The position numbers were made by a program, and so were the translations under genes. Positions 32,099 to 58,101 of a stretch of 64,000 bases of DNA are shown piece after piece. The DNA comes from Escherichia coli (GTDB lineage: Bacteria; Pseudomonadota; Gammaproteobacteria; Enterobacterales; Enterobacteriaceae). Position 1 is the first letter of the stretch, and each line of letters starts with the position of its first letter. The stretch lies in NCBI RefSeq assembly GCF_051903065.1, contig NZ_CP178438.1; one strand, given 5' to 3'. Under the pieces are notes generated by a model. The model was not told the DNA's origin. It did not search any database and saw nothing but the letters and a program-made list of their open reading frames with translations.

Positions 32099-32122
32099 GT
32101 TCGAGTCCGGCCTTCGGCACCA
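32099..32122 (+). repeat. 24-bp copy of the tRNA-Leu (leuX) 3' end: island boundary direct repeat
   Basis: GTTCGAGTCCGGCCTTCGGCACCA equals the leuX T-arm/acceptor 3' end (from memory); no D-arm or anticodon arm upstream, so it is an att fragment, not a tRNA gene. Confidence 0.65.
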
Positions 32123-32346
32123 CATCGTATGCAAATCGAGTCGCTCAAGGGCGGCTTTTTTTGTGTCTGGAATCCGTTAGTTACCTATCTTTCTCGCTAT
32201 TTTAACTCTCTCAGAGCCAGCCAATTTCAACCCATCGCAAACGAAAAATGTTGGTACAGGCGTTGGTATTTTCGGTTCGACATTAATTTGTATTAGCTCA
32301 GTCCTGATCTGACAGCTATCTGCCAGATCAGGTTCGGATTAATACA

Positions 32347-35300: not shown

Positions 35301-35463
35301 TTACCGAAATAAATTCATAGCCCTGATTCCGCAGGTCCTGAATCAGTTCCCGTTCCAGGTCCGATTCGCTCTGGTAGCTGTCGCCTGTTTGCTCAGCTTT
35401 GATGTACTTATCAAGGACGATAAAGTTATTGGATTCAGCAATGGTGTGTGTTTGATGAGTCAT
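32347..35463 (-). CDS. hsdR: Type I restriction enzyme R subunit (Type IC, EcoR124-like HsdR)
   Basis: 1038 aa (same length as EcoR124I HsdR as recalled); helicase motifs TGSGKT and DECHRSQ. Confidence 0.95.
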
Positions 35464-35584
35464 AGCGCATCCTTTGTGCCGCCTGGCAAGGGCCGGAAGG
35501 GCGTTAAGAGTGACTTCCGGCGCGTAAAAAATAGTCTATATACAGACCGGGTGTTAAGGTGGCCCGGTCGGTAGCAATGGTCAA

Positions 35585-38416: not shown

Positions 38417-38722
38417 TTTTTATCCTTTGAATGTGTTTTTAACGTCGGCTTTTGCCGGGATTTTACCGGAAGTTGTTTGGTTTTTCAGATTTGTATGACG
38501 GTGAGGAGGGGATTCAGTACCAGATTGTTAGTGCATCTTACTCAGCATTCACCGCTTGAGTCAGGAGGCTACTTTATATGCCCATCGCCCATCCGTAGGT
38601 GATCAGATAATTTATTGCGAGTCACCTTCCCGATTTTCAATCTCATTATTTACCCAATCTTTCACCAGTGGATAATTCGTCTGCTACTAACGGCGAGTGT
38701 ATTTTTTTACGGATGAAAGATT

Positions 38723-39556
38723 ATGCAAACAGAAGCTGAAGTCTTAACCGATCATAACGAACTAATTTGCTCGACCAGTATTGAGCGTATCGTCACAGGA
38801 CGTGATAGTGCACTGAACCAGATAGCGGCGTTAATCCAAAAGCTTGATGATATCTCCAGCCTGACATCCAGTATTGGCGGTGATGTGGCTGGAACCTGGG
38901 CAATGCGTAATGGATATGCCTTTGATTGCTGGCTGATGCAGCCAACCGACAAAGCGATGCCGGTGATCACCCGAAATATCGATCGCAGTATCTGGCGCGA
39001 TCTCATGCTGAAGTCCGGTATGTTGACTCTGATGGATGCCGAAGCTCGCAGTCAGTGGGCAAAGAATCTGGAGGAGGGCGATCTCCCGGCGATTAGCGAA
39101 GCCAACATCCTGAGTACCTTTGAACAACTTCACCACAATAAGCAGGATGTTTTCGAACGTGGGATTATCAATGTATTTAAGGGATTGAGCTGGGATTACA
39201 AAACCAATAATCCCTGTTATTTCGGTAAGAAGATTATCGTTAACAATCTGGTGAAGCATGACCGATGGGGCTACAGCCTGCACTGGGGCTGGCGGCGAGA
39301 TCAGCTTGCCGATCTGGAACGGATGTTCTATCTGCTGGATGGGAAGGTCATTCCCGATAACCGGCATGATGTTGCGATTCGGTTTATGGACTTCGTTAGT
39401 GCTCACCCGCATGAGCAGGTATTTAATGACGATTTATTTGTCATCCGCTATTACCAGAAAGGCAGTGGGCATATCACATTCAAGCGACTGGATCTGGTGG
39501 ATAAGATGAATGACATTGTGGCGAAGCACTATCCGTCAGCGTTATCAGCAAAATGA
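38723..39556 (+). CDS. Hypothetical protein (277 aa) upstream of the McrBC-like pair
   Basis: ORF with ATG start, same strand as the McrBC-like genes, separated from them by about 360 bp; no catalytic motif recognised. Confidence 0.5.
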   Translation: MQTEAEVLTDHNELICSTSIERIVTGRDSALNQIAALIQKLDDISSLTSSIGGDVAGTWAMRNGYAFDCWLMQPTDKAMPVITRNIDRSIWRDLMLKSGMLTLMDAEARSQWAKNLEEGDLPAISEANILSTFEQLHHNKQDVFERGIINVFKGLSWDYKTNNPCYFGKKIIVNNLVKHDRWGYSLHWGWRRDQLADLERMFYLLDGKVIPDNRHDVAIRFMDFVSAHPHEQVFNDDLFVIRYYQKGSGHITFKRLDLVDKMNDIVAKHYPSALSAK

Positions 39557-39914
39557 ATGTCGTATGTTTGCTGTCAATAATGTCGTTACTGGAACCCTCT
39601 GAATTTCGGCATATCCATTTACTGGAAACGATGTTTACCTAAAAACAGTTGATTCCCTATGCAACTAGAAACCTCACACAGGTTGAAAAACGAGTAGCGA
39701 TTTTACGTATGAAAGAATGCTATAGCCTTCTCTGAGAGCCATCAACATCATGCGTTTTGCAGTTAAGTCATCAGATAAATGTGGTGGCTCCAGGGCAGAA
39801 GGTAATTTCAGGATGAAAGTTATTTTTTTTATCACAAAATTTAACATTTTTGAGATTAATCCGATAAGATAAGGCTATCCCAATTTCCCTCCCCCCTACA
39901 TATTGGATTAAGAG

Positions 39915-41969
39915 ATGGTTCAGGATTCATCAGCATTAGCCCCCTTCTTTCGTGCTCAAATTGAAAAAAATAATCAATACAATTCAGTTTGGGGCAAACA
40001 CTACCGCCAGCTTGTAGAACAGATTCAGGCCGAAAAACCAAACTTTTCTGAAGCCACGATTCGGCAGGTATGGTATGAACGTGACAATGGTGTCTCCAGC
40101 CTGATGCAAGGAGGGATGTCATTGGTTGAATTTGAAAATGCACAAAAAGACCTTCTAACGCTCACCCGTCAGATAGCAGAAGAGTGTACACAAGAAAATT
40201 ATAATCGGGTCATTGAACGCCTTATCAAACTTAAAGCGGACGGAGTATTAAATAAGGTATATAGGGCTCTTTGTAATCGTGCTTTTGCAGCAATATACCC
40301 ATCAAAAATTAGCAGTGTCGTGAATGTTAATAATTTTTTTAGTTGCTACAATTATTGCAACAACCATTTCCAGCTAGGTCTTTCCGGAGAACGGGAGTGG
40401 CTGGCTCGCAATGTTGATCTTAAAGAAACGCTAAATCGTGCGCTGGGTGATGATATCGACCCTATTGAGCTGAATATGTCACTTTGGCATCTCTATGCGT
40501 ATGAAATTCAGGATAAAAATGCTATCGGTTTAGTTGGAAGCGAAAGTGCTTTACAAGAAAATGAGCAAGAAGATGATGTTATAAGTTCGCCATTGCCTAA
40601 AAACACAATTCTCTATGGCCCGCCAGGTACAGGTAAAACATATCGTACTATTGAGCTTGCTGTACAAATTTGTGATCCGATCGCTTACTCCCTGCAGGAG
40701 GGTAAGGATGAGAGTGAAAAACGTCGCGAGTTGAAAAAGATTTATGATCAGCTTATCAAAGAAAATCGAGTGCGTTTTATCACCTTTCATCAGAGCTTTG
40801 GTTATGAAGAGTTTATTGAAGGTTTAAGAGCTGAGACTACTGATGACGGTAATGTAAAATACGAAATAAAGGCAGGTATTTTTAAGCAGATATGCGAGGA
40901 TGCCGCCTTTGGTCATGCTGGTGCGCAGGAAATGTTAGATAGCGCACTTACTCGCCTACAAGAACGTTTATCTGAAGGTGAAAATATCACGCTGGAAACA
41001 CAACAGGGTAAGGCCTTCCAGCTGACGTATAAAAGTCAAACCAACTTTGGAATTTTCCCGTCACAATCGAAAAAAGAGGATTTAGGACAGGGTTACAATG
41101 CCTATTTGAAGGATATTCGGCAAGTTTATCAGGATCCACGAGCAAAAGTACATAATCCATCTTATGTACGCAGTATCCTTAACTATTTAATTAATCAACG
41201 TTATCTGCCTCTGAATACTCAGAGCGTAGCTTCAGAAAAAAAGGAAAACTATGTTCTCATTATTGATGAAATAAATCGGGGTAATATTTCAAAAATTTTC
41301 GGTGAACTAATTACCCTTATTGAGCCATCTAAACGGGCTGGTGAGCCAGAATCGCTTAGCGTATTGCTGCCATACTCTTCCACTCCATTTAGTGTGCCGA
41401 ATAACCTTTATTTAATTGGTACCATGAACACTGCTGATCATTCGCTTACTGCACTTGATACTGCACTACGTCGCAGATTTGATTTTGAAGCGATGCTGCC
41501 AGATATTACTGTTCTGAAAGATACTGTCATTAAAGGTATTGATCTGCCTCGTCTATTGCAGACGCTTAACGATCGCATCCAGGTTTTATACGATAGAGAA
41601 CATATGCTGGGGCATGCTTTTTTTATCCCTGTTGTGCAGGCAAAAGAAGACGAAGCTCTGGCATTTGAAAGATTCAAACGGATTATGCGAAATAAGATAC
41701 TACCATTGCTGGAAGAATATTTTTACAATGACTGGCAAAAAATTCGCATGGTACTGGCTGATAACCAAAAAGAGGAAGCACCAGATCTTCAATTTGTACG
41801 TGAGGTGAAATACCAGAAAAAGTATGCCGATCTCTTTGGTGATAACGGAACAGATGACTTGGGAACCAGTTTTCACCTGGCAGCAGAGGATGACAACGTT
41901 TGGGACAATCCAATCGCCTGGCAGCAAATTTATGCACCTCAAAAAGAAAAACGCAGGAGTGCGGAATGA
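39915..41969 (+). CDS. McrB-family AAA+ GTPase with non-canonical N-terminal domain
   Basis: 684 aa; Walker A LYGPPGTGKT, Walker B LIIDEINRGN, McrB-type GTMNTAD motif; the first ~230 aa is a helical region of unknown type. Confidence 0.85.
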   Translation: MVQDSSALAPFFRAQIEKNNQYNSVWGKHYRQLVEQIQAEKPNFSEATIRQVWYERDNGVSSLMQGGMSLVEFENAQKDLLTLTRQIAEECTQENYNRVIERLIKLKADGVLNKVYRALCNRAFAAIYPSKISSVVNVNNFFSCYNYCNNHFQLGLSGEREWLARNVDLKETLNRALGDDIDPIELNMSLWHLYAYEIQDKNAIGLVGSESALQENEQEDDVISSPLPKNTILYGPPGTGKTYRTIELAVQICDPIAYSLQEGKDESEKRRELKKIYDQLIKENRVRFITFHQSFGYEEFIEGLRAETTDDGNVKYEIKAGIFKQICEDAAFGHAGAQEMLDSALTRLQERLSEGENITLETQQGKAFQLTYKSQTNFGIFPSQSKKEDLGQGYNAYLKDIRQVYQDPRAKVHNPSYVRSILNYLINQRYLPLNTQSVASEKKENYVLIIDEINRGNISKIFGELITLIEPSKRAGEPESLSVLLPYSSTPFSVPNNLYLIGTMNTADHSLTALDTALRRRFDFEAMLPDITVLKDTVIKGIDLPRLLQTLNDRIQVLYDREHMLGHAFFIPVVQAKEDEALAFERFKRIMRNKILPLLEEYFYNDWQKIRMVLADNQKEEAPDLQFVREVKYQKKYADLFGDNGTDDLGTSFHLAAEDDNVWDNPIAWQQIYAPQKEKRRSAE

Positions 41970-43276
41970 AATCTTCCAGTCATTTCACTGTGTTCGAATA
42001 CGGGCATTTAGTGAGTGAGGAAGGTGATGCCCGTATAAATAATGCGGTAGTGCTACCTGCAGACCTATTTAAATGGCTTGAGCTGCGCTGTCTGAAAGAC
42101 GATGCTGATAATACTCATCGTTTGCTCACCCTTAGCAGCCGGAATGGAGTAAAAACGCTGCAGGTAAAAAACTATGCAGGAGTAATCTCACTGCCAGGGG
42201 GGCGATTTCTCGAAATCCTGCCTAAAACAGGTCAGGATAATGAGGATACTGTTCGTCAACAAATACTGATGATGTTACGTACGTTAAAATCATTTCGTCA
42301 TATTGCCTCCTCTGAATCTGGCGTCAAAATATCTAAAATGCCTCTGATGGACATCTTTATTCAACAATTTATAGAGAGCGTGCGTAAGATTGTGCAGAGA
42401 GGGTTAAAACGTGACTATTTACGTCAGGAAGATAATCTTCCATGGATAAAAGGAAGATTACGGATCTCTGCACAATTAAGCAAAAACTGTATTAGGCGGG
42501 ATCTTTTTCAGGTGGAGTATGACGAGTACAGCGTCAATCGTCTGGAAAACCGGATACTCAAAACTGCAATCAATAAGATTAGTCGCCAGACCAGTAATCC
42601 ACAATTATTACAGCAGATAACACAGCTGCAGTTTCACTTTGAAAATATCACGTCAGTTCATGATGCTTATATAGCTTTCGAGCAGTTACACTTTGATAGA
42701 CACATGCATCACTATGAGCAAGCATTAGCGTGGGCGAAGATGATTTTATTGGGCGATTCTCCACACTGTATGTATGGGGATGTTAATGCTTTTTCACTGC
42801 TTTTCCCGATGGAGGCTGTTTTTGAATCTTTTGTGACGACATGGATGCGTTATCGTTATTATGATAAATGGCGAGTGGACGCACAGGTAAGTTCAAAAAA
42901 TCTGATTAGTTATAACGGTAAAGCTTTATTTAAGCTGCGGCCTGATATTTGTTTACGGCCTCGTAAAAGTACTACTGGTTCAGTTATTACCTGTGATATT
43001 AAATGGAAGATAGTAAATGGCAGAAAGGACAGTCTTGAACAATCTCAAGCCGATCTCTACCAAATGCTTGCCTATGGATTGAATTACCAGGAGGGGGAAG
43101 GTGATATGATTTTGATATACCCCTATCATAACGGATTTAATCAGCCATCTCCTCATCCTTATGAATTTAGCCATCAGAAGGAAAATAGGTTACGTTTATG
43201 GGTTGTACCTTTCTTTATTGGCGAGAGTTTACAGACATCAGAGTTGCATTTTCCTAGTGGGGCTGAATTTATTTAG
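41966..43276 (+). CDS. McrC-family nuclease partner
   Basis: ATG overlaps the mcrB-like stop (ATGA); C-terminal PD-(D/E)xK-like …RPDICL…CDIKWK…; size and linkage typical of McrC. Confidence 0.75.
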   Translation: MKSSSHFTVFEYGHLVSEEGDARINNAVVLPADLFKWLELRCLKDDADNTHRLLTLSSRNGVKTLQVKNYAGVISLPGGRFLEILPKTGQDNEDTVRQQILMMLRTLKSFRHIASSESGVKISKMPLMDIFIQQFIESVRKIVQRGLKRDYLRQEDNLPWIKGRLRISAQLSKNCIRRDLFQVEYDEYSVNRLENRILKTAINKISRQTSNPQLLQQITQLQFHFENITSVHDAYIAFEQLHFDRHMHHYEQALAWAKMILLGDSPHCMYGDVNAFSLLFPMEAVFESFVTTWMRYRYYDKWRVDAQVSSKNLISYNGKALFKLRPDICLRPRKSTTGSVITCDIKWKIVNGRKDSLEQSQADLYQMLAYGLNYQEGEGDMILIYPYHNGFNQPSPHPYEFSHQKENRLRLWVVPFFIGESLQTSELHFPSGAEFI

Positions 43277-43338
43277 TATTTGTAGGCTATCTCTTTATAC
43301 AATTTATTTGTCTATTTGTATGCACAAGATAGCCTACC

Positions 43339-44268
43339 TCACCCCCTAAAAACCTCTTTCCGATGCCACTCCACAAACCCCTCAAAAGGGTAATTTTTAC
43401 GCACCTGTGGCAACGCAATAGTTTTCCCGTCAAAATCCCAGAATAATCTCTCAACGATCCCTCCGCCGTTTACCGCATCCGAGACCAGTATCCGCATATT
43501 TTCATCCAGGCCAATCGATCCTTTATCAAAGGCTTTATGGTGTATTGCGCAAAGTGCCAGACCATTGGGGATTTCACAAGGGCCGCCGTGCTGTTTCCAT
43601 TTTATATGCGCCGCTTCCAGCGCGACGGTGGTGTCGTCGTGGCGCATATTAAAGCCACATATCGCGCACTGGTATTTATAAGCGCGTAATACATTTTTGC
43701 GAAATAACGGGTCGCGCTGTTTACGGATTTGCTGGAGATCAAAACCCAGCTCGTCAGCAATTTCTTCCTGAATACTCTCGGTGAAGTGCGCTTCGAGTAT
43801 CTGTTGCGCCAGAGTATTGATGAGTTTTTTATTGCCGGTTACCAGGGCGTAGTGCTGTTCATCGAAACCGCCTGCAACGTGGTATTCGTTCAGTTCCTTC
43901 ACTGGCGGTTGTCGGCTGCTCCCTGCTGTTGAGCAACGCTCGGCATTGTGTAATTGCCAGAATCCGTCGCCTTGTAATCGCCAGAACGGCATATCAGGTC
44001 GGTACTGTGAACGCTGTGGCCCAAAACGTTCCAGTAAACTGTGCAGAGGTTCGTAGATTTCCGAGCCATAATCGAAAAGGCGCGGATGTCCATGCAGGTA
44101 TCCCGCTAATACGTATAGCAATAACAATGGCTTATGCGGCGCGCGCTGTTCACCCTTATGCCAGATTTTTATATTGGCAATTGCCTGCTGTAGCGATTTA
44201 CTGGAAGCCATTGATATCCCTGGCAGTGAAATAATTGCGATCATGCTCGCAAATTTTCTGCTGTTCAA
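43339..44268 (-). CDS. HNH endonuclease (HNH_2-type, putative restriction enzyme)
   Basis: C-terminal …YKYQCAICGF…AAHIKWKQHGGP…NGLALCAIHHKAFDKG…; about 190-aa N-terminal domain of unknown function; start may be an internal Met. Confidence 0.65.
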   Translation of the reverse strand: MNSRKFASMIAIISLPGISMASSKSLQQAIANIKIWHKGEQRAPHKPLLLLYVLAGYLHGHPRLFDYGSEIYEPLHSLLERFGPQRSQYRPDMPFWRLQGDGFWQLHNAERCSTAGSSRQPPVKELNEYHVAGGFDEQHYALVTGNKKLINTLAQQILEAHFTESIQEEIADELGFDLQQIRKQRDPLFRKNVLRAYKYQCAICGFNMRHDDTTVALEAAHIKWKQHGGPCEIPNGLALCAIHHKAFDKGSIGLDENMRILVSDAVNGGGIVERLFWDFDGKTIALPQVRKNYPFEGFVEWHRKEVFRG

Positions 44269-44347
44269 GCCTGCAAGTGAAGATATATTACTTTGATCTC
44301 ATTTGTTTTTTTGCTGCTTGTTCTGAGAACGTATAAGGACATTCTCT

Positions 44348-44998
44348 ATGAATAAACTCCCCGATCATCTTCCGCGGCGGTATATTATCGAAGCTATTCA
44401 TTTATGGGATGCGGGAGAAACTCATCAGTTCCAGCCTGCACGGTTGTATGAGATTGAATATCATGGCCGACGTTACCCCTCGAAGGCGATTGCTGGCATC
44501 GCAGCGACATTGATGACGGGGACGCAATTTACCCCTGCGGATTTCACCGGCGGAATAAAATCTAAATGCGTCAAGCTACTTATAGATCAGGGATTTCATA
44601 TTCATCAGGATAAAGCCGCTGCGGCTCCCATAGCCGATGTTCTGTTCCCGGATGAGTTGCCGTCGCAGGGGACCTACGTTGAAGGTGCGGCGATAAAGGT
44701 GACGGTAAACAGCTATGAACGCGATAAAAACGCTCGCGAGAAAGCAGTCGAATATCACGGATGCCAGTGCAACGTATGCGGCGTTGATCTGGTGAAGATC
44801 TATGGCGATATCGCTGAGGGCTTTATCCATATGCATCACCTGGTGCCGCTTTCAGCCATTAAAGAGGATTACCTGCTGGATCCAGTTAATGATTTACTTC
44901 CTGTGTGCCCTAATTGCCATGCGATGTTGCACCGACGCAAACCACCGTTTACGCCGGAGGAGTTAAAAGCGTTGATGGATGCGAATAAATCAAATTAA
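44348..44998 (+). CDS. HNH endonuclease with N-terminal putative DNA-recognition domain
   Basis: …CQCNVCGVDL…HMHHLVPLS…PVCPNCHAMLHR… is a classic HNH; about 110-aa N-terminal domain unassigned. Confidence 0.7.
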   Translation: MNKLPDHLPRRYIIEAIHLWDAGETHQFQPARLYEIEYHGRRYPSKAIAGIAATLMTGTQFTPADFTGGIKSKCVKLLIDQGFHIHQDKAAAAPIADVLFPDELPSQGTYVEGAAIKVTVNSYERDKNAREKAVEYHGCQCNVCGVDLVKIYGDIAEGFIHMHHLVPLSAIKEDYLLDPVNDLLPVCPNCHAMLHRRKPPFTPEELKALMDANKSN

Positions 44999-45005
44999 TG
45001 AACGC

Positions 45006-45986
45006 TCACCTTTCGCGCCAAAACTGCAAAATTGCTTCTACAAACTTGTCAGAAATAATCCCCCGACGGGCTGCCGCGCTGAAATGACTGCTTCGCAGTG
45101 CCGTCGTCCAGTTCTCCGGTGACCGGTACGCTGAACCGTAATATCCCGTGCTTAAATCGTCCGGATCTTCATCAGGCGCGTTCGTCAGTCCTCTTTCACC
45201 TTGTTGCTGGAAGTCGACGAAAATAATATTGGCTAAAACATTATTTTGATAATTGCCATAAATAGCTTCATACGCATGAGGGAAATTTTCTTTCCAGTAC
45301 CAGGTGGTATCGCCGCAAAACCAGGGCGCATCAGTAATATTATTAAGCTGAGAATGGTATTGTTTTAGATCCCTACGAAAGGCTTCAACCATATGATTAA
45401 AGTGTTGAGGGTGTGACGCGTAGTCACTGGTCATTAAGTCAAATTCGCCTTGCATCCAGCATACGCCGAGGAATTTGTTCTGCGGATTTTTTGCCAATGC
45501 GGCTCGCGTTCTGCTGACTAAATCCTGGTATAGCGGAGTATCCGTTCCCCAACGACAAGCATCATGGCTGGCTCCGTGCCGTTCTGAATATGTCCCCTCG
45601 CTGCCCGCGGTAAAAGCCGATCCGCCACGGCAACATGGAACGATGAGAACCCCTGCGTTATCAGGAATAAAGGGCAGTAATTTCCGTGCAATATGCAGTG
45701 CCTGGCCAATGGTGCCGTACTGTGTTTGATGATTCGTTGCCAGAGGATGGTGATAACCCTGCATATCCTGAACATCGTGTGGGCAGTGAGTCAGTGGAAT
45801 AATGTCGTTAAAGTGACATGACGGGCCTCCGGGATGCGTATGCGCAAATCTCGCTAATTGTTTAATTCTGGGATGAGGCGCATCTTCCCTGTCCGGTAAT
45901 GGCAGTCCTTCGCCATACGCCATGGCATTAGACTGACCAGCAACGGTAAGAACATAGTAATAATCGGGCGATATTATTGCGTCCAT
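45006..45986 (-). CDS. nanS: 9-O-acetyl-N-acetylneuraminate esterase
   Basis: 326 aa; sequence and synteny with nanM-nanC as in E. coli K-12. Confidence 0.9.
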   Translation of the reverse strand: MDAIISPDYYYVLTVAGQSNAMAYGEGLPLPDREDAPHPRIKQLARFAHTHPGGPSCHFNDIIPLTHCPHDVQDMQGYHHPLATNHQTQYGTIGQALHIARKLLPFIPDNAGVLIVPCCRGGSAFTAGSEGTYSERHGASHDACRWGTDTPLYQDLVSRTRAALAKNPQNKFLGVCWMQGEFDLMTSDYASHPQHFNHMVEAFRRDLKQYHSQLNNITDAPWFCGDTTWYWKENFPHAYEAIYGNYQNNVLANIIFVDFQQQGERGLTNAPDEDPDDLSTGYYGSAYRSPENWTTALRSSHFSAAARRGIISDKFVEAILQFWRER

Positions 45987-46049
45987 ATAATTTTCGCGTA
46001 ATTGAAATGATAAATTGATAGCAGGGCCCTTTACTGGGGCCCTGAAGCG

Positions 46050-47156
46050 TTAGTTTTGTACTGTAACTTTATTATCCTTCACAGAGATCAAAACTGAATC
46101 CGTCACCGCTTTGCCGCCTGCAGATTCACCGCCAATAATCAATAGACTATTATTCCAGGGCAATGATACTCCGTAGGCCCGACCTTGCGATAATTCACCA
46201 GATTTATCCCATTTCCCGTTATGCCAAAGATGAATATCAGTGCTATATGATTTTTTCAGGCCTTCATGCGCATAGTTCTTACCGTTCTGGTAATTTTCTC
46301 GTGAACCTTTGAATCCGGCCCCTCCGGCAAATATAAGAGAATCATTGCTTATCCCCGCAAAACCGCCAGCGACGCCATCTGGTGATGAGACGGGAGCAAG
46401 CTTATTCCATTTTAAATTATTACCGGTGAAATCAAGTTCAAATACGGCATCCGTTCGCAATCCGGGTTTGGCTTCGCCATTAATAAGCCAGGTTTTATCA
46501 CCTTTATTCACAACCGCCGCACCAGCCGTTCCGTACCAGGGAGATTCGCCAGCGTAACTCCATTGCTGTGTTGAGGGATCAAAAGACAACAGAAACTTAT
46601 TGAAGAAATAATCTTCTGCTTTTTTGTCAAAATAATGGGCATTGATCTTGTCTATAGTTGCTGAATCTTTTCCAGCCTCGTTGAGATCTTCAAAATAGCC
46701 ATTGAAGATATTCTGGTTAACACCGCCAGTAACATAAGCCTTGCCGTTGTGTACAAAAGTCACATGACCCGCCATGCCCATCGGTGCATGCGACATCAAT
46801 TTAACCCAGCTATTGGTTTTGGGGTTGTATTTGTGTACGTCATTAAATACCTGAGTCAAGCCCTTGCTATTTTTGCCAATGCCGCCAAACACATACAGAT
46901 TGCCATCAATAAATGCAGAGGTTGCTTGATCTCTTGGTCCGCCAGGGAATGCAGCTAACGCTGTCCATTTTTTATCTTTGGCCTGTGTATCCAGCTTGTA
47001 CCATGCCGTACCTGCGCTACCTAAACCAATGTAGACAGTGTCGTTATCAATTGCTCCGGTACCACTTTTAAATGGCACAGGAGTTTCCGGTAATACAGAC
47101 GCGTTTGCGGCAAATGAAGCCATCATGATAGCAAGCGCCGTTATTGTTTTATTCAT
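46050..47156 (-). CDS. nanM: N-acetylneuraminate mutarotase
   Basis: Start at ATG 47156 (MNKTITALAIMMASFAANA…, AGGAGA RBS), 368 aa; Kelch-repeat protein. Confidence 0.9.
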   Translation of the reverse strand: MNKTITALAIMMASFAANASVLPETPVPFKSGTGAIDNDTVYIGLGSAGTAWYKLDTQAKDKKWTALAAFPGGPRDQATSAFIDGNLYVFGGIGKNSKGLTQVFNDVHKYNPKTNSWVKLMSHAPMGMAGHVTFVHNGKAYVTGGVNQNIFNGYFEDLNEAGKDSATIDKINAHYFDKKAEDYFFNKFLLSFDPSTQQWSYAGESPWYGTAGAAVVNKGDKTWLINGEAKPGLRTDAVFELDFTGNNLKWNKLAPVSSPDGVAGGFAGISNDSLIFAGGAGFKGSRENYQNGKNYAHEGLKKSYSTDIHLWHNGKWDKSGELSQGRAYGVSLPWNNSLLIIGGESAGGKAVTDSVLISVKDNKVTVQN

Positions 47157-47175
47157 TGTGACTGTCTCCTGTCTA

Positions 47176-47892
47176 CTACAGTTTAAATGACACACCAATG
47201 CGATAACTGTTTTCCGATAAATTATCTCTGCCGTTGTAAACACCCTGACGGTCAAGGTAGTCATATTCTATGTATGGCGTAATATCCGGCGTCATATGGT
47301 ATTGTAGAACAAATGCATTTTCCGTCGCCCATTTCTTATGGTTTGCATAGCGATAATCGTTCTGTTTGCTGTATAGCGTCGTTTGCCATGCGAAGGTGAA
47401 ATCACTATTAATATGGTAAGTGACATATCCATCCCAACGATGAACGTTATCACGAGACATATCACCGGATAAGTCTTGTTGTCGGTAAGCTTTCCAGTCG
47501 TAACGATAGCGAATGCCAAAATTAAGATCTTTTGTCGCGTCCCAGGACAGTTTTACGTAGGGTCCGTAGCGTGTGCCGTTGCTGCTAAAATGCGTTAACA
47601 TTCCCGGGCGCACCGTCCATTGATCATCAAGTTTAATTGCGTAATTAACTTCAACCTGAACATCATTGAGTGCGGCATTTTCCTTTTTATTATCATGAAT
47701 GGTATTCCAGGTATTACTTTCCATACTTGCCCACCATCCATTTTGCCATCCCTCACTGACTTTGAGTCGAGTCTCATAGGCGTGGCTTCCACTACGATAT
47801 CCACCACGTACGTCCAGTGTCGCAGCCTGAGAAATTAATGGGGACGAAAAGCACAGTAATAATACGCCAGAAAGTATTTTAGCCTTTTTCAT
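47176..47892 (-). CDS. nanC: N-acetylneuraminic acid outer-membrane channel
   Basis: Start at ATG 47892 (MKKAKILSGVLLLCFSSPLISQA…), 238 aa. Confidence 0.9.
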   Translation of the reverse strand: MKKAKILSGVLLLCFSSPLISQAATLDVRGGYRSGSHAYETRLKVSEGWQNGWWASMESNTWNTIHDNKKENAALNDVQVEVNYAIKLDDQWTVRPGMLTHFSSNGTRYGPYVKLSWDATKDLNFGIRYRYDWKAYRQQDLSGDMSRDNVHRWDGYVTYHINSDFTFAWQTTLYSKQNDYRYANHKKWATENAFVLQYHMTPDITPYIEYDYLDRQGVYNGRDNLSENSYRIGVSFKL

Positions 47893-49348
47893 AAATTTCA
47901 CTCATTTGTAGGATACAGAAAGCAATACAAAGCCCGCATAAACAATTAGCATTTATGTTGTGTAATATTTTTTTGCCAGGCTTATAGTGTCTTTGGCAAC
48001 CGGTAGCTGTATTTTATATTTTTTTGTATAAGGTCTCCTGTGAAAAATCTCTTTTCACATTATTTAAATAAACAGAGATCCAGATTAAATACCTGAGTAT
48101 AAAATCTCTTCTGATGTTTAATTGATTTGAATGTTCGTAAGCTATATCACTTACTCAATCCATTTTACCCAGAGTCATAAAATAGAGTGTCTGTTGATCT
48201 CATTTTCATATTCCTTTCAGACTGAAGTGCGTTTTCATCACCCGATGAGAAAGAACTGAAGCGATGTTTGCCATAGATTGCAAGATGCCCTGTCTCATTG
48301 TCTATCGTGGTGCACCTTTATACCTGTTATACCAGATCAAAAATCACGCAATCCATACAACAAAACCAGATTTGCAATTCGTGTCACAAAATATGTCGAT
48401 CTTTTTCTAAGAAGAAGATGCCATGTGAAGCCAGACGAACACTTGCGGTGGTCTTCAAAAACTAAAGATCTTCTTTTAACTATATGTTTTATAAATAATT
48501 TATTTAGAGTCTAAACAAGGGAAGCTTTGCAAGCTAACTCAGTGAGCTTGGTGAAAATAAGTGTTTACCCGCCATCAGGCTGAGCATAATTCTCATCATG
48601 AAATATGTTTCCTGGTTTGTGGCTTGTAACTGGTCACTTCTGAAGTCGATCTGGAGAGGCTTGTTGATGTTGGTGTTTTCAGGATGATGTTTCACTTAGT
48701 TTGTTTGCCGTATCGCCCGGCGAATGGCTGTGATTGAGGAAGGTTTAAGTCGCAGTGACCAAAGCCATATTTACCAGCGAATGTAGATGAAAAAATCGTC
48801 TCCTGCGTTCCCCCATATCTCCAGGATAAAAAGGAATGTAACAATCTCATGGCTTAAACTGACGAACCAGCCAGGAATAATCGCTAGGGACCTAAGAATT
48901 AGCTTGATAATAGCCACTAAGAAATTACTGTGTTCCATGAAATAGCCATTTTGTGGCAAATGGAGTTGACTAATAATGTCATATGTGAGACGGCTAGTTG
49001 AACGAATATTAAATTTTGCTGAATTTTTTATGTTGATTTTACTTGTTACAGAACATATCACATGATATATAGATAAGATTAGTTGCATTAATGATGAGGG
49101 TTATTATTAGATTCGTATCAGATTGATAAATATATAAAAGTATATAGCATGCAAGAGCATAGCGTTTGTATGGCAACGTTATTATAATTAACTGTTGCTA
49201 CCCCATTTAAGTTCACTCAGAAGAACTGGTCCACTTACGTTAGTTATTAAGCAAACGTTCGCTTTTATAAACATAATCAGGATAAAAATGTTGGATTATT
49301 GCTAACCCAGCACAGCTAGTGCGCGTCTGTAATTATAAGGGAAAAACG
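47893..49348. promoter_or_regulatory. nanC-fimB divergent intergenic regulatory region
   Basis: About 1.45 kb AT-rich non-coding region between divergent nanC and fimB; in K-12 it carries the nanC and fimB promoters and distal NanR/NagC/IHF sites (established knowledge, sites not mapped here). Confidence 0.45.
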
Positions 49349-49951
49349 ATGAAGAATAAGGCTGATAACAAAAAAAGGAACTTCCTGACCCATAGTGAAA
49401 TCGAATCACTCCTTAAAGCAGCAAATACCGGGCCTCATGCAGCACGTAATTATTGTCTGACTTTGCTTTGTTTTATTCATGGTTTCCGGGCGAGTGAAAT
49501 TTGTCGATTGAGGATTTCGGATATTGATCTTAAGGCAAAGTGTATATATATCCATCGATTAAAAAAAGGCTTTTCAACAACGCACCCGCTATTGAACAAA
49601 GAAGTTCAGGCTTTAAAAAACTGGTTAAGTATCCGTACTTCGTACCCGCATGCTGAGAGCGAATGGGTATTTTTATCGCGTAAGGGGAATCCGCTTTCTC
49701 GGCAACAGTTTTACCATATTATCTCGACTTCCGGTGGTAATGCCGGGTTGTCACTGGAGATTCATCCGCACATGTTACGCCATTCGTGTGGTTTTGCTTT
49801 GGCGAATATGGGAATAGATACGCGGCTTATCCAGGATTATCTTGGGCATCGCAATATTCGTCATACTGTCTGGTATACCGCCAGCAATGCAGGGCGTTTT
49901 TACGGCATCTGGGATAGGGCCAGAGGACGACAGCGTCACGCTGTTTTATAG
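49349..49951 (+). CDS. fimB: Type 1 fimbriae recombinase FimB
   Basis: 200 aa from ATG 49349 (MKNKADNKKRNFLTHSEIESLL…); tyrosine recombinase. Confidence 0.95.
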   Translation: MKNKADNKKRNFLTHSEIESLLKAANTGPHAARNYCLTLLCFIHGFRASEICRLRISDIDLKAKCIYIHRLKKGFSTTHPLLNKEVQALKNWLSIRTSYPHAESEWVFLSRKGNPLSRQQFYHIISTSGGNAGLSLEIHPHMLRHSCGFALANMGIDTRLIQDYLGHRNIRHTVWYTASNAGRFYGIWDRARGRQRHAVL

Positions 49952-50428: not shown

Positions 50429-51025
50429 GTGAGTAAACGTCGTTATCTTACCGGTAAAGAAGTTCAGGCCATGATGCAGGCGGTTTGTTACGGGGCAACG
50501 GGAGCCAGAGATTATTGTCTTATTCTGTTGGCATATCGGCATGGGATGCGTATTAGTGAACTGCTTGATCTGCATTATCAGGATCTTGACCTTAATGAAG
50601 GTCGAATAAATATTCGCCGACTGAAGAACGGATTTTCTACCGTTCACCCGTTACGTTTTGATGAGCGTGAAGCTGTGGAACGCTGGACCCTGGAACGTGC
50701 TAACTGGAAAGGCGCTGATCGGACCGACGCCATATTTATTTCTCGCCGCGGGAGTCGGCTTTCTCGCCAGCAGGCCTATCGCATTATTCGTGATGCCGGT
50801 ATTGAAGCTGGAACCGTAACGCAGACTCATCCTCATATGTTAAGGCATGCTTGCGGTTATGAACTGGCGGAGCGTGGTGCCGATACCCGTTTAATTCAGG
50901 ATTATCTCGGGCATCGAAATATTCGCCATACTGTGCGTTATACCGCCAGTAATGCTGCTCGTTTTGCCGGATTATGGGAAAGAAATAATCTCATAAACGA
51001 AAAATTAAAAAGAGAAGAGGTTTGA
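50429..51025 (+). CDS. fimE: Type 1 fimbriae recombinase FimE
   Basis: 198 aa with GTG start (VSKRRYLTGKEVQAMMQ…), as in K-12. Confidence 0.95.
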   Translation: MSKRRYLTGKEVQAMMQAVCYGATGARDYCLILLAYRHGMRISELLDLHYQDLDLNEGRINIRRLKNGFSTVHPLRFDEREAVERWTLERANWKGADRTDAIFISRRGSRLSRQQAYRIIRDAGIEAGTVTQTHPHMLRHACGYELAERGADTRLIQDYLGHRNIRHTVRYTASNAARFAGLWERNNLINEKLKREEV

Positions 51026-51072
51026 TTTAACTTATTGATAATAAAGTTAAAAAACAAATAAATACAAGACAA

Positions 51073-51386
51073 TTGGGGCCAAACTGTCCATATCATAAAT
51101 AAGTTACGTATTTTTTCTCAAGCATAAAAATATTAAAAAACGACAAAAAGCACCTAACTGTTTGATATGTAAATTATTTCTCTTGTAAATTAATTTCACA
51201 TCACCTCCGCTATATGTAAAGCTAACGTTTCTGTGGCTCGACGCATCTTCCTCATTCTTCTCTCCAAAAACCACCTCATGCAATATAAAAATCTATAAAT
51301 AAAGATAACAATAGAATATTAAGCCAACAAATAAACTGAAAAAGTTTGTGCGCGATGCTTTCCTCTATGAGTCAAAATGGCCCCAA
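51073..51386. promoter_or_regulatory. fimS invertible element (fim switch), 314 bp
   Basis: 9-bp inverted repeats TTGGGGCCA (51073-51081) and TGGCCCCAA (51378-51386). Confidence 0.85.
51092..51121 (-). promoter_or_regulatory. fimA sigma-70 promoter inside fimS, pointing toward fimE (phase OFF)
   Basis: On the minus strand TTGAGA-N18-TATGAT lies next to the fimE-proximal repeat; no comparable promoter faces fimA at the other end. Confidence 0.5.
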
Positions 51387-51505
51387 ATGTTTCATCTTTT
51401 GGGGGAAAACTGTGCAGTGTTGGCAGTCAAACTCGTTGACAAAACAAAGTGTACAGAACGACTGCCCATGTCGATTTAGAAATAGTTTTTTTAAAGGAAA
51501 GCAGC

Positions 51506-52054
51506 ATGAAAATTAAAACTCTGGCAATCGTTGTTCTGTCGGCTCTGTCCCTCAGTTCCGCAGCGGCTCTGGCCGATACTACGACGGTAAATGGTGGGAC
51601 CGTTCACTTTAAAGGGGAAGTTGTTAATGCCGCTTGCGCAGTTGATGCAGGCTCTGTTGATCAAACCGTTCAGTTAGGACAGGTTCGTACCGCATCGCTG
51701 GCACAAGAAGGAGCAACCAGTTCTGCTGTCGGTTTTAACATTCAACTGAACGATTGTGACACTACTGTTGCAGACAAAGCAGCTATTGCCTTCCTTGGTA
51801 CCGCAATTGATGGCACTCATCCTAACGTATTAGCTTTGCAGAGTTCAGCTGCGGGTAGCGCAACAAAAGTTGGTGTGCAGATCCTGGACAGAACGGGCGC
51901 TGCGCTGGCGCTGGACGGTGCGACATTTAGTGCACAAACAACCCTGAATAACGGAACCAACACCATTCCGTTCCAGGCGCGTTATTTTGCAACCGGTGCC
52001 GCAACCCCTGGCGCAGCTAATGCGGATGCGACCTTCAAGGTTCAGTATCAATAA
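51506..52054 (+). CDS. fimA: Type 1 fimbrial major subunit FimA
   Basis: ATG 51506 ([23 protein letters not shown]…), 182 aa. Confidence 0.95.
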
Positions 52055-52118
52055 CCTACCCAGGTTCAGGGACGTCATTACGGGCAGGGATGCCCACCCT
52101 TGTGCGATAAAAATAACG

Positions 52119-52658
52119 ATGAAAAGGAAGAGATTATTTCTATTAGCGTCGTTGCTGCCAATGTTTGCTCTGGCCGGAAATAAATGGAATACCACGCTGC
52201 CCGGCGGAAATATGCAATTTCAGGGCGTCATTATTGCGGAAACTTGCCGGATTGAAGCCGGTGATAAACAAATGACGGTCAATATGGGGCAAATCAGCAG
52301 TAACCGGTTTCATGCGGTTGGGGAAGATAGCGCACCGGTGCCTTTTGTTATTCATTTACGGGAATGTAGCACGGTGGTGAGTGAACGTGTAGGTGTGGCG
52401 TTTCACGGTGTCGCGGATGGTAAAAATCCGGATGTGCTTTCCGTGGGAGAGGGGCCAGGGATAGCCACCAATATTGGCGTAGCGTTGTTTGATGATGAAG
52501 GAAACCTCGTACCGATTAATCGTCCTCCAGCAAACTGGAAACGGCTTTACTCAGGCTCTACTTCGCTACATTTCATCGCCAAATATCGTGCTACCGGGCG
52601 TCGGGTTACTGGCGGCATCGCCAATGCCCAGGCCTGGTTCTCTTTAACCTATCAGTAA
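52119..52658 (+). CDS. fimI: Fimbrial protein FimI
   Basis: ATG 52119 ([21 protein letters not shown]…), 179 aa. Confidence 0.9.
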
Positions 52659-52694: not shown

Positions 52695-53420
52695 GTGAGT
52701 AATAAAAACGTCAATGTAAGGAAATCGCAGGAAATAACATTCTGCTTGCTGGCAGGTATCCTGATGTTCATGGCAATGATGGTTGCCGGACGCGCTGAAG
52801 CGGGAGTGGCCTTAGGTGCGACTCGCGTAATTTATCCGGCAGGGCAAAAACAAGTGCAACTTGCCGTGACAAATAATGATGAAAATAGCACCTATTTAAT
52901 TCAATCATGGGTGGAAAATGCCGATGGTGTAAAGGATGGTCGTTTTATCGTGACGCCTCCTCTGTTTGCGATGAAGGGAAAAAAAGAGAATACCTTGCGT
53001 ATTCTTGATGCAACAAATAACCAATTGCCACAGGACCGGGAAAGTTTATTCTGGATGAACGTTAAAGCGATTCCGTCAATGGATAAATCAAAATTGACTG
53101 AGAATATGCTACAGCTCGCAATTATCAGCCGCATTAAACTGTACTATCGTCCGGCTAAATTAGCGTTGCCACCCGATCAGGCCGCAGAAAAATTAAGATT
53201 TCGTCGTAGCGCGAATTCTCTGACGCTGATTAACCCGACACCCTATTACCTGACGGTAACAGAGTTGAATGCCGGAGCCCGGGTTCTTGAAAATGCCTTG
53301 GTGCCTCCAATGGGCGAAAGCACGGTTAAATTGCCTTCTGATGCAGGAAGCAATATTACTTACCGAACAATAAATGATTATGGCGCACTTACCCCCAAAA
53401 TGACGGGCGTAATGGAATAA
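52695..53420 (+). CDS. fimC: Periplasmic chaperone FimC
   Basis: 241 aa, GTG start; PapD-like chaperone. Confidence 0.95.
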   Translation: MSNKNVNVRKSQEITFCLLAGILMFMAMMVAGRAEAGVALGATRVIYPAGQKQVQLAVTNNDENSTYLIQSWVENADGVKDGRFIVTPPLFAMKGKKENTLRILDATNNQLPQDRESLFWMNVKAIPSMDKSKLTENMLQLAIISRIKLYYRPAKLALPPDQAAEKLRFRRSANSLTLINPTPYYLTVTELNAGARVLENALVPPMGESTVKLPSDAGSNITYRTINDYGALTPKMTGVME

Positions 53421-53486
53421 CGCAGGGGGAATTTTTCGCCTGAATAAAAAGAATTGACTGCCGGGTGATTTTAAACCGGAGGAATA

Positions 53487-56123
53487 ATGTCATATCTGAA
53501 TTTAAGACTTTACCAGCGAAACACACAATGCTTGCATATTCGTAAGCATCGTTTGGCTGGTTTTTTTGTCCGGCTCTTTGTCGCCTGTGCTTTTGCCGCA
53601 CAGGCACCTTTGTCATCTGCCGAACTCTATTTTAATCCGCGCTTTTTAGCGGATGATCCCCAGGCTGTGGCCGATTTATCGCGTTTTGAAAATGGGCAAG
53701 AATTACCGCCAGGGACGTATCGTGTCGATATCTATTTGAATAATGGTTATATGGCAACGCGTGATGTCACATTTAATACGGGCGACAGCGAACAAGGGAT
53801 TGTTCCCTGCCTGACACGCGCGCAACTTGCCAGTATGGGGCTGAATACGGCTTCTGTCTCCGGTATGAATCTGCTGGCGGATGATGCCTGCGTGCCATTA
53901 ACCTCCATGATCCATGACGCTACTGCGCATTTAGATGTTGGTCAGCAGCGACTCAACCTGACGATCCCTCAGGCATTTATGAGTAATCGCGCGCGTGGTT
54001 ATATTCCTCCTGAGTTATGGGATCCCGGTATTAATGCCGGATTGCTCAATTATAATTTCAGCGGAAATAGTGTACAGAATCGGATTGGGGGTAACAGCCA
54101 TTATGCATATTTAAACCTACAGAGTGGGTTAAATATTGGTGCGTGGCGTTTACGCGACAATACCAGCTGGAGTTATAACAGTAGCGACAGATCATCAGGT
54201 AGCAAAAATAAATGGCAGCATATCAATACCTGGCTTGAGCGAGACATAATACCGTTACGTTCCCGGCTGACGCTGGGTGATGGTTATACTCAGGGCGATA
54301 TTTTCGATGGTATTAACTTTCGCGGCGCACAATTGGCCTCAGATGACAATATGTTACCCGATAGCCAAAGAGGATTTGCCCCGGTGATCCACGGTATTGC
54401 TCGTGGTACTGCACAGGTCACTATTAAACAAAATGGGTATGACATTTATAATAGTACGGTGCCGCCGGGGCCTTTTACCATCAACGATATCTATGCCGCA
54501 GGTAATAGTGGTGACTTGCAGGTAACGATTAAAGAGGCTGACGGCAGCACGCAGATTTTTACCGTACCCTATTCGTCAGTCCCGCTTTTGCAACGTGAAG
54601 GGCATACTCGTTATTCCATTACGGCAGGAGAATACCGTAGTGGAAATGCGCAACAGGAAAAACCCCGCTTTTTCCAAAGTACATTACTCCACGGCCTTCC
54701 GGCTGGCTGGACAATATATGGTGGAACGCAACTGGCAGATCGTTATCGTGCTTTTAATTTCGGTATCGGGAAAAACATGGGGGCACTGGGCGCTCTGTCT
54801 GTGGATATGACGCAGGCTAATTCCACACTTCCCGATGACAGTCAGCATGACGGACAATCGGTGCGTTTTCTCTATAACAAATCGCTCAATGAGTCAGGCA
54901 CGAATATTCAGTTAGTGGGTTACCGTTATTCGACCAGCGGATATTTAAATTTCGCTGATACAACATACAGTCGAATGAATGGCTACAACATCGAAACACA
55001 GGATGGAGTTATTCAGGTTAAGCCGAAATTCACCGACTATTACAACCTCGCTTATAACAAACGCGGGAAATTACAGCTCACCGTTACTCAGCAACTCGGG
55101 CGCACATCAACACTGTATTTGAGTGGTAGCCATCAAACTTATTGGGGAACGAGTAATGTCGATGAGCAATTCCAGGCTGGTTTAAATACTGCGTTCGAAG
55201 ATATCAACTGGACGCTCAGCTATAGCCTGACGAAAAACGCCTGGCAAAAAGGACGGGATCAGATGTTAGCGCTTAACGTCAATATTCCTTTCAGCCACTG
55301 GCTGCGTTCTGACAGTAAATCTCAGTGGCGACATGCCAGTGCCAGCTACAGCATGTCACACGATCTCAACGGTCGGATGACCAATCTGGCTGGTGTATAC
55401 GGTACGTTGCTGGAAGACAACAACCTCAGTTATAGCGTGCAAACCGGCTATGCCGGGGGAGGCGATGGTAATAGCGGAAGTACAGGCTACGCCACGCTGA
55501 ATTATCGCGGTGGTTACGGCAATGCCAATATCGGTTACAGCCATAGCGATGATATTAAGCAGCTCTATTACGGAGTCAGCGGTGGGGTACTGGCTCATGC
55601 TAATGGCGTAACGCTGGGGCAGCCGTTAAACGATACGGTGGTGCTTGTTAAAGCGCCTGGCGCAAAAGATGCAAAAGTCGAAAACCAGACGGGGGTGCGT
55701 ACCGACTGGCGCGGTTATGCCGTGCTGCCTTATGCCACCGAATATCGGGAAAACAGAGTGGCGCTGGATACCAATACCCTGGCTGATAACGTCGATTTAG
55801 ATAACGCGGTCGCTAACGTTGTTCCCACTCGTGGGGCGATCGTGCGAGCAGAGTTTAAAGCGCGCGTTGGGATAAAACTGCTCATGACGCTAACCCACAA
55901 TAATAAGCCGCTGCCGTTTGGGGCGATGGTGACATCAGAGAGTAGCCAGAGTAGCGGCATTGTTGCGGATAATGGTCAGGTTTACCTCAGCGGAATGCCT
56001 TTAGCGGGAAAAGTTCAGGTGAAATGGGGAGAAGAGGAAAATGCTCACTGTGTCGCCAATTATCAACTGCCACCAGAGAGTCAGCAGCAGTTATTAACCC
56101 AGCTATCAGCTGAATGTCGTTAA
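53487..56123 (+). CDS. fimD: Outer-membrane usher FimD
   Basis: 878 aa. Confidence 0.95.
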   Translation: MSYLNLRLYQRNTQCLHIRKHRLAGFFVRLFVACAFAAQAPLSSAELYFNPRFLADDPQAVADLSRFENGQELPPGTYRVDIYLNNGYMATRDVTFNTGDSEQGIVPCLTRAQLASMGLNTASVSGMNLLADDACVPLTSMIHDATAHLDVGQQRLNLTIPQAFMSNRARGYIPPELWDPGINAGLLNYNFSGNSVQNRIGGNSHYAYLNLQSGLNIGAWRLRDNTSWSYNSSDRSSGSKNKWQHINTWLERDIIPLRSRLTLGDGYTQGDIFDGINFRGAQLASDDNMLPDSQRGFAPVIHGIARGTAQVTIKQNGYDIYNSTVPPGPFTINDIYAAGNSGDLQVTIKEADGSTQIFTVPYSSVPLLQREGHTRYSITAGEYRSGNAQQEKPRFFQSTLLHGLPAGWTIYGGTQLADRYRAFNFGIGKNMGALGALSVDMTQANSTLPDDSQHDGQSVRFLYNKSLNESGTNIQLVGYRYSTSGYLNFADTTYSRMNGYNIETQDGVIQVKPKFTDYYNLAYNKRGKLQLTVTQQLGRTSTLYLSGSHQTYWGTSNVDEQFQAGLNTAFEDINWTLSYSLTKNAWQKGRDQMLALNVNIPFSHWLRSDSKSQWRHASASYSMSHDLNGRMTNLAGVYGTLLEDNNLSYSVQTGYAGGGDGNSGSTGYATLNYRGGYGNANIGYSHSDDIKQLYYGVSGGVLAHANGVTLGQPLNDTVVLVKAPGAKDAKVENQTGVRTDWRGYAVLPYATEYRENRVALDTNTLADNVDLDNAVANVVPTRGAIVRAEFKARVGIKLLMTLTHNNKPLPFGAMVTSESSQSSGIVADNGQVYLSGMPLAGKVQVKWGEEENAHCVANYQLPPESQQQLLTQLSAECR

Positions 56124-56132
56124 GGGGGCGTG

Positions 56133-56663
56133 ATGAGAAACAAACCTTTTTATCTTCTGTGCGCTTTTTTGTGGCTGGCGGTGAGTCACGCTTTGGCTGC
56201 GGATAGCACGATTACTATCCGCGGCTATGTCAGAGATAACGGCTGTAGTGTGGCCGCTGAATCAACCAATTTTACTGTTGATTTGATGGAAAACGCGGCG
56301 AAGCAATTTAACAACATTGGCGCGACGACTCCTGTCGTTCCATTTCGTATTTTGCTGTCACCCTGTGGTAATGCCGTTTCTGCCGTAAAAGTTGGGTTTA
56401 CCGGTGTTGCAGATAGCCACAATGCCAACCTGCTTGCACTTGAAAATACGGTGTCAGCGGCTTCGGGACTGGGAATACAGCTTCTGAATGAGCAGCAAAA
56501 TCAGATACCCCTTAATGCTCCATCGTCCGCGCTTTCGTGGACGACCCTGACGCCGGGTAAACCAAATACGCTGAATTTTTACGCCCGGCTAATGGCGACA
56601 CAGGTGCCTGTCACTGCGGGGCATATCAATGCCACGGCTACCTTCACTCTTGAATATCAGTAA
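56133..56663 (+). CDS. fimF: Fimbrial minor subunit FimF
   Basis: ATG 56133 ([22 protein letters not shown]…), 176 aa. Confidence 0.9.
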
Positions 56664-56675
56664 CTGGAGATGCTC

Positions 56676-57179
56676 ATGAAATGGCGCAAACGTGGGTATT
56701 TATTGGCGGCAATATTGGCGCTCGCAAGTGCGACGATACAGGCAGCCGATGTCACCATCACGGTGAACGGTAAGGTCGTCGCCAAACCGTGCACAGTTTC
56801 CACCACCAATGCCACGGTTGATCTCGGCGATCTTTATTCTTTCAGTCTGATGTCTGCCGGGGCGGCATCGGCCTGGCATGATGTTGCGCTTGAGTTGACT
56901 AATTGTCCGGTGGGAACGTCGAGGGTCACTGCCAGCTTCAGCGGGGCAGCCGACAGTACCGGATATTATAAAAACCAGGGGACCGCGCAAAACATCCAGT
57001 TAGAGCTACAGGATGACAGTGGCAACACATTGAATACTGGCGCAACCAAAACAGTTCAGGTGGATGATTCCTCACAATCAGCGCACTTCCCGTTACAGGT
57101 CAGAGCATTGACGGTAAATGGCGGAGCCACTCAGGGAACCATTCAGGCAGTGATTAGCATCACCTATACCTACAGCTGA
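56676..57179 (+). CDS. fimG: Fimbrial minor subunit FimG
   Basis: ATG 56676 (MKWRKRGYLLAAILALASATIQA…), 167 aa. Confidence 0.9.
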   Translation: MKWRKRGYLLAAILALASATIQAADVTITVNGKVVAKPCTVSTTNATVDLGDLYSFSLMSAGAASAWHDVALELTNCPVGTSRVTASFSGAADSTGYYKNQGTAQNIQLELQDDSGNTLNTGATKTVQVDDSSQSAHFPLQVRALTVNGGATQGTIQAVISITYTYS

Positions 57180-57198
57180 ACCCGAAGAGATGATTGTA

Positions 57199-58101
57199 AT
57201 GAAACGAGTTATTACCCTGTTTGCTGTACTGCTGATGGGCTGGTCGGTAAATGCCTGGTCATTCGCCTGTAAAACCGCCAATGGTACCGCTATCCCTATT
57301 GGCGGTGGCAGCGCCAATGTTTATGTAAATCTTGCGCCCGCCGTGAATGTGGGGCAAAACCTGGTCGTAGATCTTTCGACGCAAATCTTTTGCCATAACG
57401 ATTATCCGGAAACCATTACAGACTATGTCACACTGCAACGAGGCTCGGCTTATGGCGGCGTGTTATCTAATTTTTCCGGGACCGTAAAATATAGTGGCAG
57501 TAGCTATCCATTTCCGACCACCAGCGAAACGCCGCGGGTTGTTTATAATTCGAGAACGGATAAGCCGTGGCCGGTGGCGCTTTATTTGACGCCTGTGAGC
57601 AGTGCGGGCGGGGTGGCGATTAAAGCTGGCTCATTAATTGCCGTGCTTATTTTGCGACAGACCAACAACTATAACAGCGATGATTTCCAGTTTGTGTGGA
57701 ATATTTACGCCAATAATGATGTGGTGGTGCCTACTGGCGGCTGCGATGTTTCTGCTCGTGATGTCACCGTTACTCTGCCGGACTACCCTGGTTCAGTGCC
57801 AATTCCTCTTACCGTTTATTGTGCGAAAAGCCAAAACCTGGGGTATTACCTCTCCGGCACAACCGCAGATGCGGGCAACTCGATTTTCACCAATACCGCG
57901 TCGTTTTCACCAGCGCAGGGCGTCGGCGTACAGTTGACGCGCAACGGTACGATTATTCCAGCGAATAACACGGTATCGTTAGGAGCAGTAGGGACTTCGG
58001 CGGTAAGTCTGGGATTAACGGCAAATTACGCACGTACCGGCGGGCAGGTGACTGCAGGGAATGTGCAATCGATTATTGGCGTGACTTTTGTTTATCAATA
58101 A
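57199..58101 (+). CDS. fimH: Mannose-specific adhesin FimH
   Basis: ATG 57199 (MKRVITLFAVLLMGWSVNAWS…), 300 aa. Confidence 0.95.
   Translation: MKRVITLFAVLLMGWSVNAWSFACKTANGTAIPIGGGSANVYVNLAPAVNVGQNLVVDLSTQIFCHNDYPETITDYVTLQRGSAYGGVLSNFSGTVKYSGSSYPFPTTSETPRVVYNSRTDKPWPVALYLTPVSSAGGVAIKAGSLIAVLILRQTNNYNSDDFQFVWNIYANNDVVVPTGGCDVSARDVTVTLPDYPGSVPIPLTVYCAKSQNLGYYLSGTTADAGNSIFTNTASFSPAQGVGVQLTRNGTIIPANNTVSLGAVGTSAVSLGLTANYARTGGQVTAGNVQSIIGVTFVYQ

Follow-up and report, generated by a model that had tools for sequence, protein, structure and literature searches.

A 314-bp fim invertible element from Escherichia coli recorded in the phase-OFF orientation

[quoted passage not shown] The 64,000-nucleotide stretch of an E. 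coli genome analysed here, referred to as the window, carries such an element between fimE and fimA. The locus raises the question of which phase was recorded, whether the element is still able to invert, and what the recorded orientation says about the sequenced culture. A previous sequence-only reading had delimited a 314-bp element at 51073-51386 and called it phase OFF, based on a sigma-70 promoter taken to be that of fimA. Our analysis indicates that this segment is almost certainly fimS, the invertible promoter element for type 1 fimbriae phase variation, in the phase-OFF orientation.

The borders of the element are given by the 9-bp sequence TTGGGGCCA, which is present in exactly two copies in the 64-kb window, one on each strand, so that the copies are inverted and span 314 bp from end to end (Table 1). 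The number of copies alone is not significant, as at least two matches were found in 18 of 100 shuffles. The significance of fimS therefore lies in the placement of the two copies as inverted repeats between fimE and fimA and in the identity to MG1655 fimS at 310 of 314 positions, not in the count of the 9-mer. Repeats, location and identity to MG1655 together bear out the element as it had been delimited from the sequence. The spacer between fimE and fimA is 480 nt long and AT-rich.

In MG1655, fimS (NC_000913.3, between fimE b4313 and fimA b4314) likewise comprises 314 bp with identical 9-bp repeats in the same orientation, and the gene order fimB-fimE-fimS-fimAICDFGH is that of the window. 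Compared with MG1655, the window has four substitutions within the switch (51153 T>C, 51182 A>C, 51290 C>A and 51350 C>G), two substitutions between the fimA-proximal repeat (IRR) and fimA, and a different fimA allele with 13 amino-acid changes from the K-12 protein. Cleavage and religation take place at the fimE-proximal repeat (IRL) (PMC2647292, PMC9993118), and of the two described binding sites for IHF, IHF-1 adjoins IRL and IHF-2 lies inside fimS (PMC9993118). Matches to the pattern WATCAANNNNTTR at 51028-51040 and 51155-51167 are predicted to be IHF-1 and IHF-2, respectively, and their positions are consistent with that description. An Rfam scan of the window returned no annotated RNA in or near fimS.

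The recombinase genes and the structural genes are intact. FimB and FimE match the NCBIfam models of tyrosine-type DNA invertases at full length; FimB is identical to that of K-12 (MG1655), and the full-length FimE shows the single difference Q88L. The names fimB, fimE and fimA agree with the RefSeq annotation of matching genomes.

Table 1. Features of the fim region, with positions in the 64-kb window and the basis of each assignment
Feature	Position	Strand	Basis
fimB, tyrosine-type DNA invertase, both directions	49349..49951	+	NCBIfam NF007370, 458 bits, cutoff 221; 200 aa
fimE, tyrosine-type DNA invertase, ON to OFF	50429..51025	+	NCBIfam NF007371, 450 bits, cutoff 222; 198 aa
IHF-consensus match just outside IRL, candidate IHF-1	51028..51040	-	TATCAATAAGTTA, pattern match to WATCAANNNNTTR
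fimS, 314-bp invertible element, OFF	51073..51386	.	repeats, MG1655 colinearity, in-silico BstUI and SnaBI patterns
IRL, fimE-proximal 9-bp inverted repeat, recombination site	51073..51081	+	exact TTGGGGCCA
Predicted PfimA	51092..51121	-	-35 TTGAGA 51121-51116, 18-nt spacer, -10 TATGAT 51097-51092; faces fimE
SnaBI site TACGTA, used in the classical orientation assay	51105..51110	.	sequence match, in-silico digest
IHF-consensus match within the switch, candidate IHF-2	51155..51167	-	TATCAAACAGTTA, pattern match to WATCAANNNNTTR
BstUI site CGCG, used in the Dorman laboratory orientation assay (PMC9993118)	51351..51354	.	in-silico digest
IRR, fimA-proximal 9-bp inverted repeat	51378..51386	-	exact TTGGGGCCA
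fimA, major type 1 fimbrial subunit	51506..52054	+	NCBIfam NF011741, 183 bits, cutoff 140; ATG 51506, 182 aa
fimI, between fimA and fimC	inside ORF 51987..52658		
fimC, fimD, fimF, fimG, fimH	52695..58101	+	all open reading frames, no internal stops

To determine the orientation, we ran in silico the experimentally calibrated assays of the literature, which are independent of the promoter assignment. In the published BstUI assay, the 726-bp amplicon of primers OL20 and OL4 is cut into 539 and 187 bp in the OFF phase and into 433 and 293 bp in the ON phase (PMC9993118). The window gave fragments of 539 and 188 bp, which is the OFF pattern, and the window with the switch inverted gave 293 and 434 bp. 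At 727 bp, the amplicon of the window exceeds the published one by 1 bp. The length of this region varies slightly between strains, and the A-run to the left of IRL is one A shorter in the window than in MG1655. In the SnaBI assay, the 601-bp amplicon of the Inv primers yields 440 and 161 bp in OFF and 403 and 198 bp in ON (PMC11724981, PMC4374849). Digestion in silico produced 161 and 440 bp from the window, again the OFF pattern, and 405 and 196 bp from the inverted window. A SnaBI digest of the culture had been proposed from the sequence; carried out in silico on the window instead, it returned the OFF fragments, with the TACGTA site located one base downstream of the 51104-51109 given in that proposal.

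Comparison with reference genomes led to the same orientation. The fimS of the UPEC strain UTI89 (NC_007946.1) has 314 bp with the same repeats and orientation, and its reference genome is stated to be OFF (bioRxiv 10.1101/494401). The window fimS is identical to it at 304 of 314 positions as sequenced, that is, with ten substitutions, and at 99 of 314 if inverted. UTI89 differs in having unlinked accessory recombinases such as FimX (bioRxiv 10.1101/494401). The window fimS is also colinear with that of MG1655. The two restriction assays, together with the colinearity with UTI89 and MG1655, thus support the phase-OFF call of the sequence-only reading.

That call had been drawn from the motif TTGAGA-N18-TATGAT, of which the window holds one copy, on the minus strand, against a chance expectation of 0.03. 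With 10 of 12 consensus bases, this sigma-70-like motif, located 11 nt from IRL, is the top promoter-like site of the 50900-51600 region, so both its uniqueness and its placement beside the fimE-proximal repeat proved correct. Within the element, two weaker promoter-like sites match at 9 of 12 bases, 51162..51191 (+) and 51311..51282 (-), and the scan of 50900-51600 agreed with the view that the fimA-proximal end holds no comparable promoter. Considering that the three promoter-like sites of this region are no enrichment over shuffled sequences (2.4 +/- 1.9), the call of a promoter is based on homology to the element already characterised. The TTGAGA and TATGAT hexamers are presumably those of the fimA promoter reportedly mapped by Olsen and Klemm 1994; a literature search for the hexamers together with fimA returned nothing relevant.

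Judging from the hexamers, transcription from the predicted promoter in the OFF state would begin near 51085 on the minus strand and converge on fimE, whose stop codon is about 60 nt away. With the switch inverted, the -10 hexamer would occupy 51362-51367, and the fimA ATG would follow about 130 nt downstream. We also considered an orientation-independent fimA promoter at 51437-51442, between IRR and fimA, where G in place of the T of MG1655 (TTTACA) creates the perfect -35 hexamer TTGACA; the same change is present in strain ws5-3. This candidate was rejected, as no acceptable -10 is found 16-18 nt downstream and the promoter scan did not report it, and the hexamer is probably not a promoter.

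Both orientations are found in natural genomes. As a survey probe we used 714 bp, made up of the switch with 200 bp of flank on either side, and a complete E. coli genome was counted when it matched at least 80% of the probe in one place; 4,721 genomes have the locus. The window orientation was found in 4,459 of them (about 95%), a count in which some genomes from lineages known to be locked OFF are pooled with the rest, and the opposite orientation, probed with the switch inverted in silico, in 249 of the 4,721. No genome was counted twice, since one of the opposite orientation can cover no more than about 58% of either probe in a single place, and the two counts add up to 4,708 of the 4,721 genomes. 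Deposited E. coli genomes ordinarily show the OFF orientation, the K-12 and UTI89 references among them, and there is nothing unusual in this respect about the window. As a natural ON record, 23CRST029 (NZ_AP045796.1) has the same element and flanks, with 99.9% identity to the inverted window over 714 bp. It differs from the window in that the segment between the repeats is inverted, so that TTGAGA-N18-TATGAT stands on the fimA strand and adjoins IRR, as it does in natural ON genomes. An ON reference with the orientation of the window would have contradicted the OFF call; the natural ON genomes match only the inverted window.

Three other explanations of the recorded orientation were weighed. 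One is that the window is really ON and that the promoter was misassigned in the sequence-only reading, given that the weak site at 51162..51191 faces fimA. We give this a negligible chance, because both restriction assays, which do not depend on the promoter call, produced OFF sizes and the UTI89 reference, described as OFF, aligns colinearly with the window. Another is that the switch is genetically locked OFF rather than a phase-variable element caught in that phase. Its orientation is what a locked switch would show, and locked lineages are known: EHEC O157:H7 has a 16-bp fimS deletion, ST131 an insertion in fimB and Shigella a fimB nonsense mutation (bioRxiv 10.1101/494401, PMC4374849, PMC9096935). 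Furthermore, position 51153, next to an IHF-like core, has a minority T>C allele in the window that O145:H28 genomes share. However, while these locked switches are OFF like that of the window, the window lacks any fimS deletion, and fimB and fimE are both undisrupted. Exactly 314 bp long, its element has two perfect repeats and only the four substitutions relative to MG1655, FimB is identical to that of K-12, and FimE is full length. The closest complete genomes over 24 kb, 23CRST027 (99.7% identity) and 23CRST031 (99.9%), both carry the minority 51153 allele, and their switch ends are OFF-type in 23CRST027 and ON-type in 23CRST031. A genetically locked switch is therefore very unlikely, and locking by fimS deletion or by fimB inactivation in particular was rejected on account of the intact repeats, length and recombinases. 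Locking by trans factors, for example Fis-dependent locking as in EPEC E2348/69, may be compatible with the sequence. Taken together, the intact repeats, the 314-bp length, the intact FimB and FimE, the IHF-consensus matches and the relatives with OFF-type and ON-type ends suggest that the switch is able to invert and that inversion occurs in the lineage of the window.

The remaining explanation is that the recorded orientation arose as an artefact of assembly, or was picked arbitrarily from mixed ON and OFF reads, and is therefore hardly informative about the culture. Sequenced DNA with mixed orientations has been described (bioRxiv 10.1101/494401), and the same two closely related complete genomes have fimS elements of 345 and 333 bp with scrambled interiors. 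In contrast, the fimS of the window is clean, with 314 bp, no chimeric interior and the identity to MG1655 (310 of 314) extending over its full length, which argues for a clear majority of OFF reads. We consider an artefactual orientation of the window extremely improbable, and the phase-OFF reading is retained. The assembly represents the majority orientation of the culture, not the state of a single cell.

The altered elements of the two relatives are an observation in their own right. The fimS of 23CRST027 measures 345 bp (L004, 21617-21961) and that of 23CRST031 measures 333 bp (L005, 21617-21949). In both, the ends are clean and the interiors are scrambled and indel-rich, resembling a consensus that was polished with ON and OFF reads, and they are probably assembly artefacts at the invertible element. 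Found in two related long-read assemblies, they indicate that consensus polishing can corrupt invertible elements.

For promoter activity, the recombination mechanism and the terminator, we follow the published work on fim. In the OFF state, the fimA promoter beside the fimE-proximal repeat would fire away from fimA, and the fimAICDFGH operon would thereby be left without a promoter. Most cells of a wild-type culture are OFF owing to the dominance of FimE (PMC2647292, PMC9993118, PMC9096935). With an intact FimE, the OFF orientation of the window would be the expected default and would reflect the majority of the sequenced culture. In the ON phase, fimE transcription reads across the switch, and in the OFF phase the fimE transcript is shorter and less stable owing to a Rho-dependent terminator in fimS (PMC2647292). 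A terminator scan of 50900-51600 found no intrinsic terminator, which fits the published Rho-dependent one (PMC2647292).

The one slightly unusual detail of the switch is the substitution at 51153 (T>C), which distinguishes the window from MG1655 and from the near-identical strain ws5-3 and is two bases away from the IHF-like core (51155-51167). Of 3,500 matching complete genomes, 65 contain the exact 58-mer with this allele (51124-51181), O145:H28 and O157:H16 strains among them. Judged by position, the allele could alter IHF binding and thereby shift the switching bias or the strength of the fimA promoter; separately, the OFF-state promoter, which is convergent on the 3' end of fimE, could have a regulatory antisense role. 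We regard these effects as very unlikely, and a literature search for antisense action of this promoter on fimE returned nothing pertinent.

The finding is correct and already known, since this is the textbook fim switch in its commonest recorded orientation. DNA inversion at fimS is a textbook case of phase variation, and the present example has little importance apart from correct annotation: the annotation of fimS should name the invertible element together with its orientation, and predictions of fimAICDFGH expression from one assembly are a snapshot of the population majority. The survey counts of 4,459 against 249 complete genomes, which show that fimS occurs in both orientations in nature, provide a baseline for judging the orientation of fimS.

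Several other features of the window were observed upstream of the fim region. The sequence GTTCGAGTCCGGCCTTCGGCACCA at 32100-32123 is only the 3' end of a tRNA-Leu gene (leuX), and ARAGORN found no complete tRNA in the window. In 23CRST027, a complete tRNA-Leu lies between ahr and the same hsdR gene as in the window. Based on the 3'-only leuX fragment and this complete tRNA-Leu at ahr-hsdR, the window from position 1 to about 32099 looks like a genomic island integrated in leuX, with the fragment at 32100-32123 as its right-end direct repeat. Inside this putative island, the Hfq-binding sRNA isrC has a full-length match at 9332-9454 (+) (Rfam RF01387, 150 bits). A match to the catalytic domain of group II introns at 12218-12304 (+) (Rfam RF00029, 65 bits) directly follows a 507-aa open reading frame (10691-12214), and the two together suggest a group II intron along with the protein it encodes. 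The stretch 32347-47901 between the leuX fragment and nanC appears from ORF sizes and the annotation of related genomes to be a restriction and defence cluster, with a type I restriction-modification system (hsdR/S/M), McrB/McrC, a phosphorothioated-DNA-binding restriction endonuclease and an HNH endonuclease. Within this cluster, mcrB is split by IS903B in 23CRST027 and 23CRST031, and the corresponding open reading frame of the window (39915-41969, 684 aa) appears uninterrupted.
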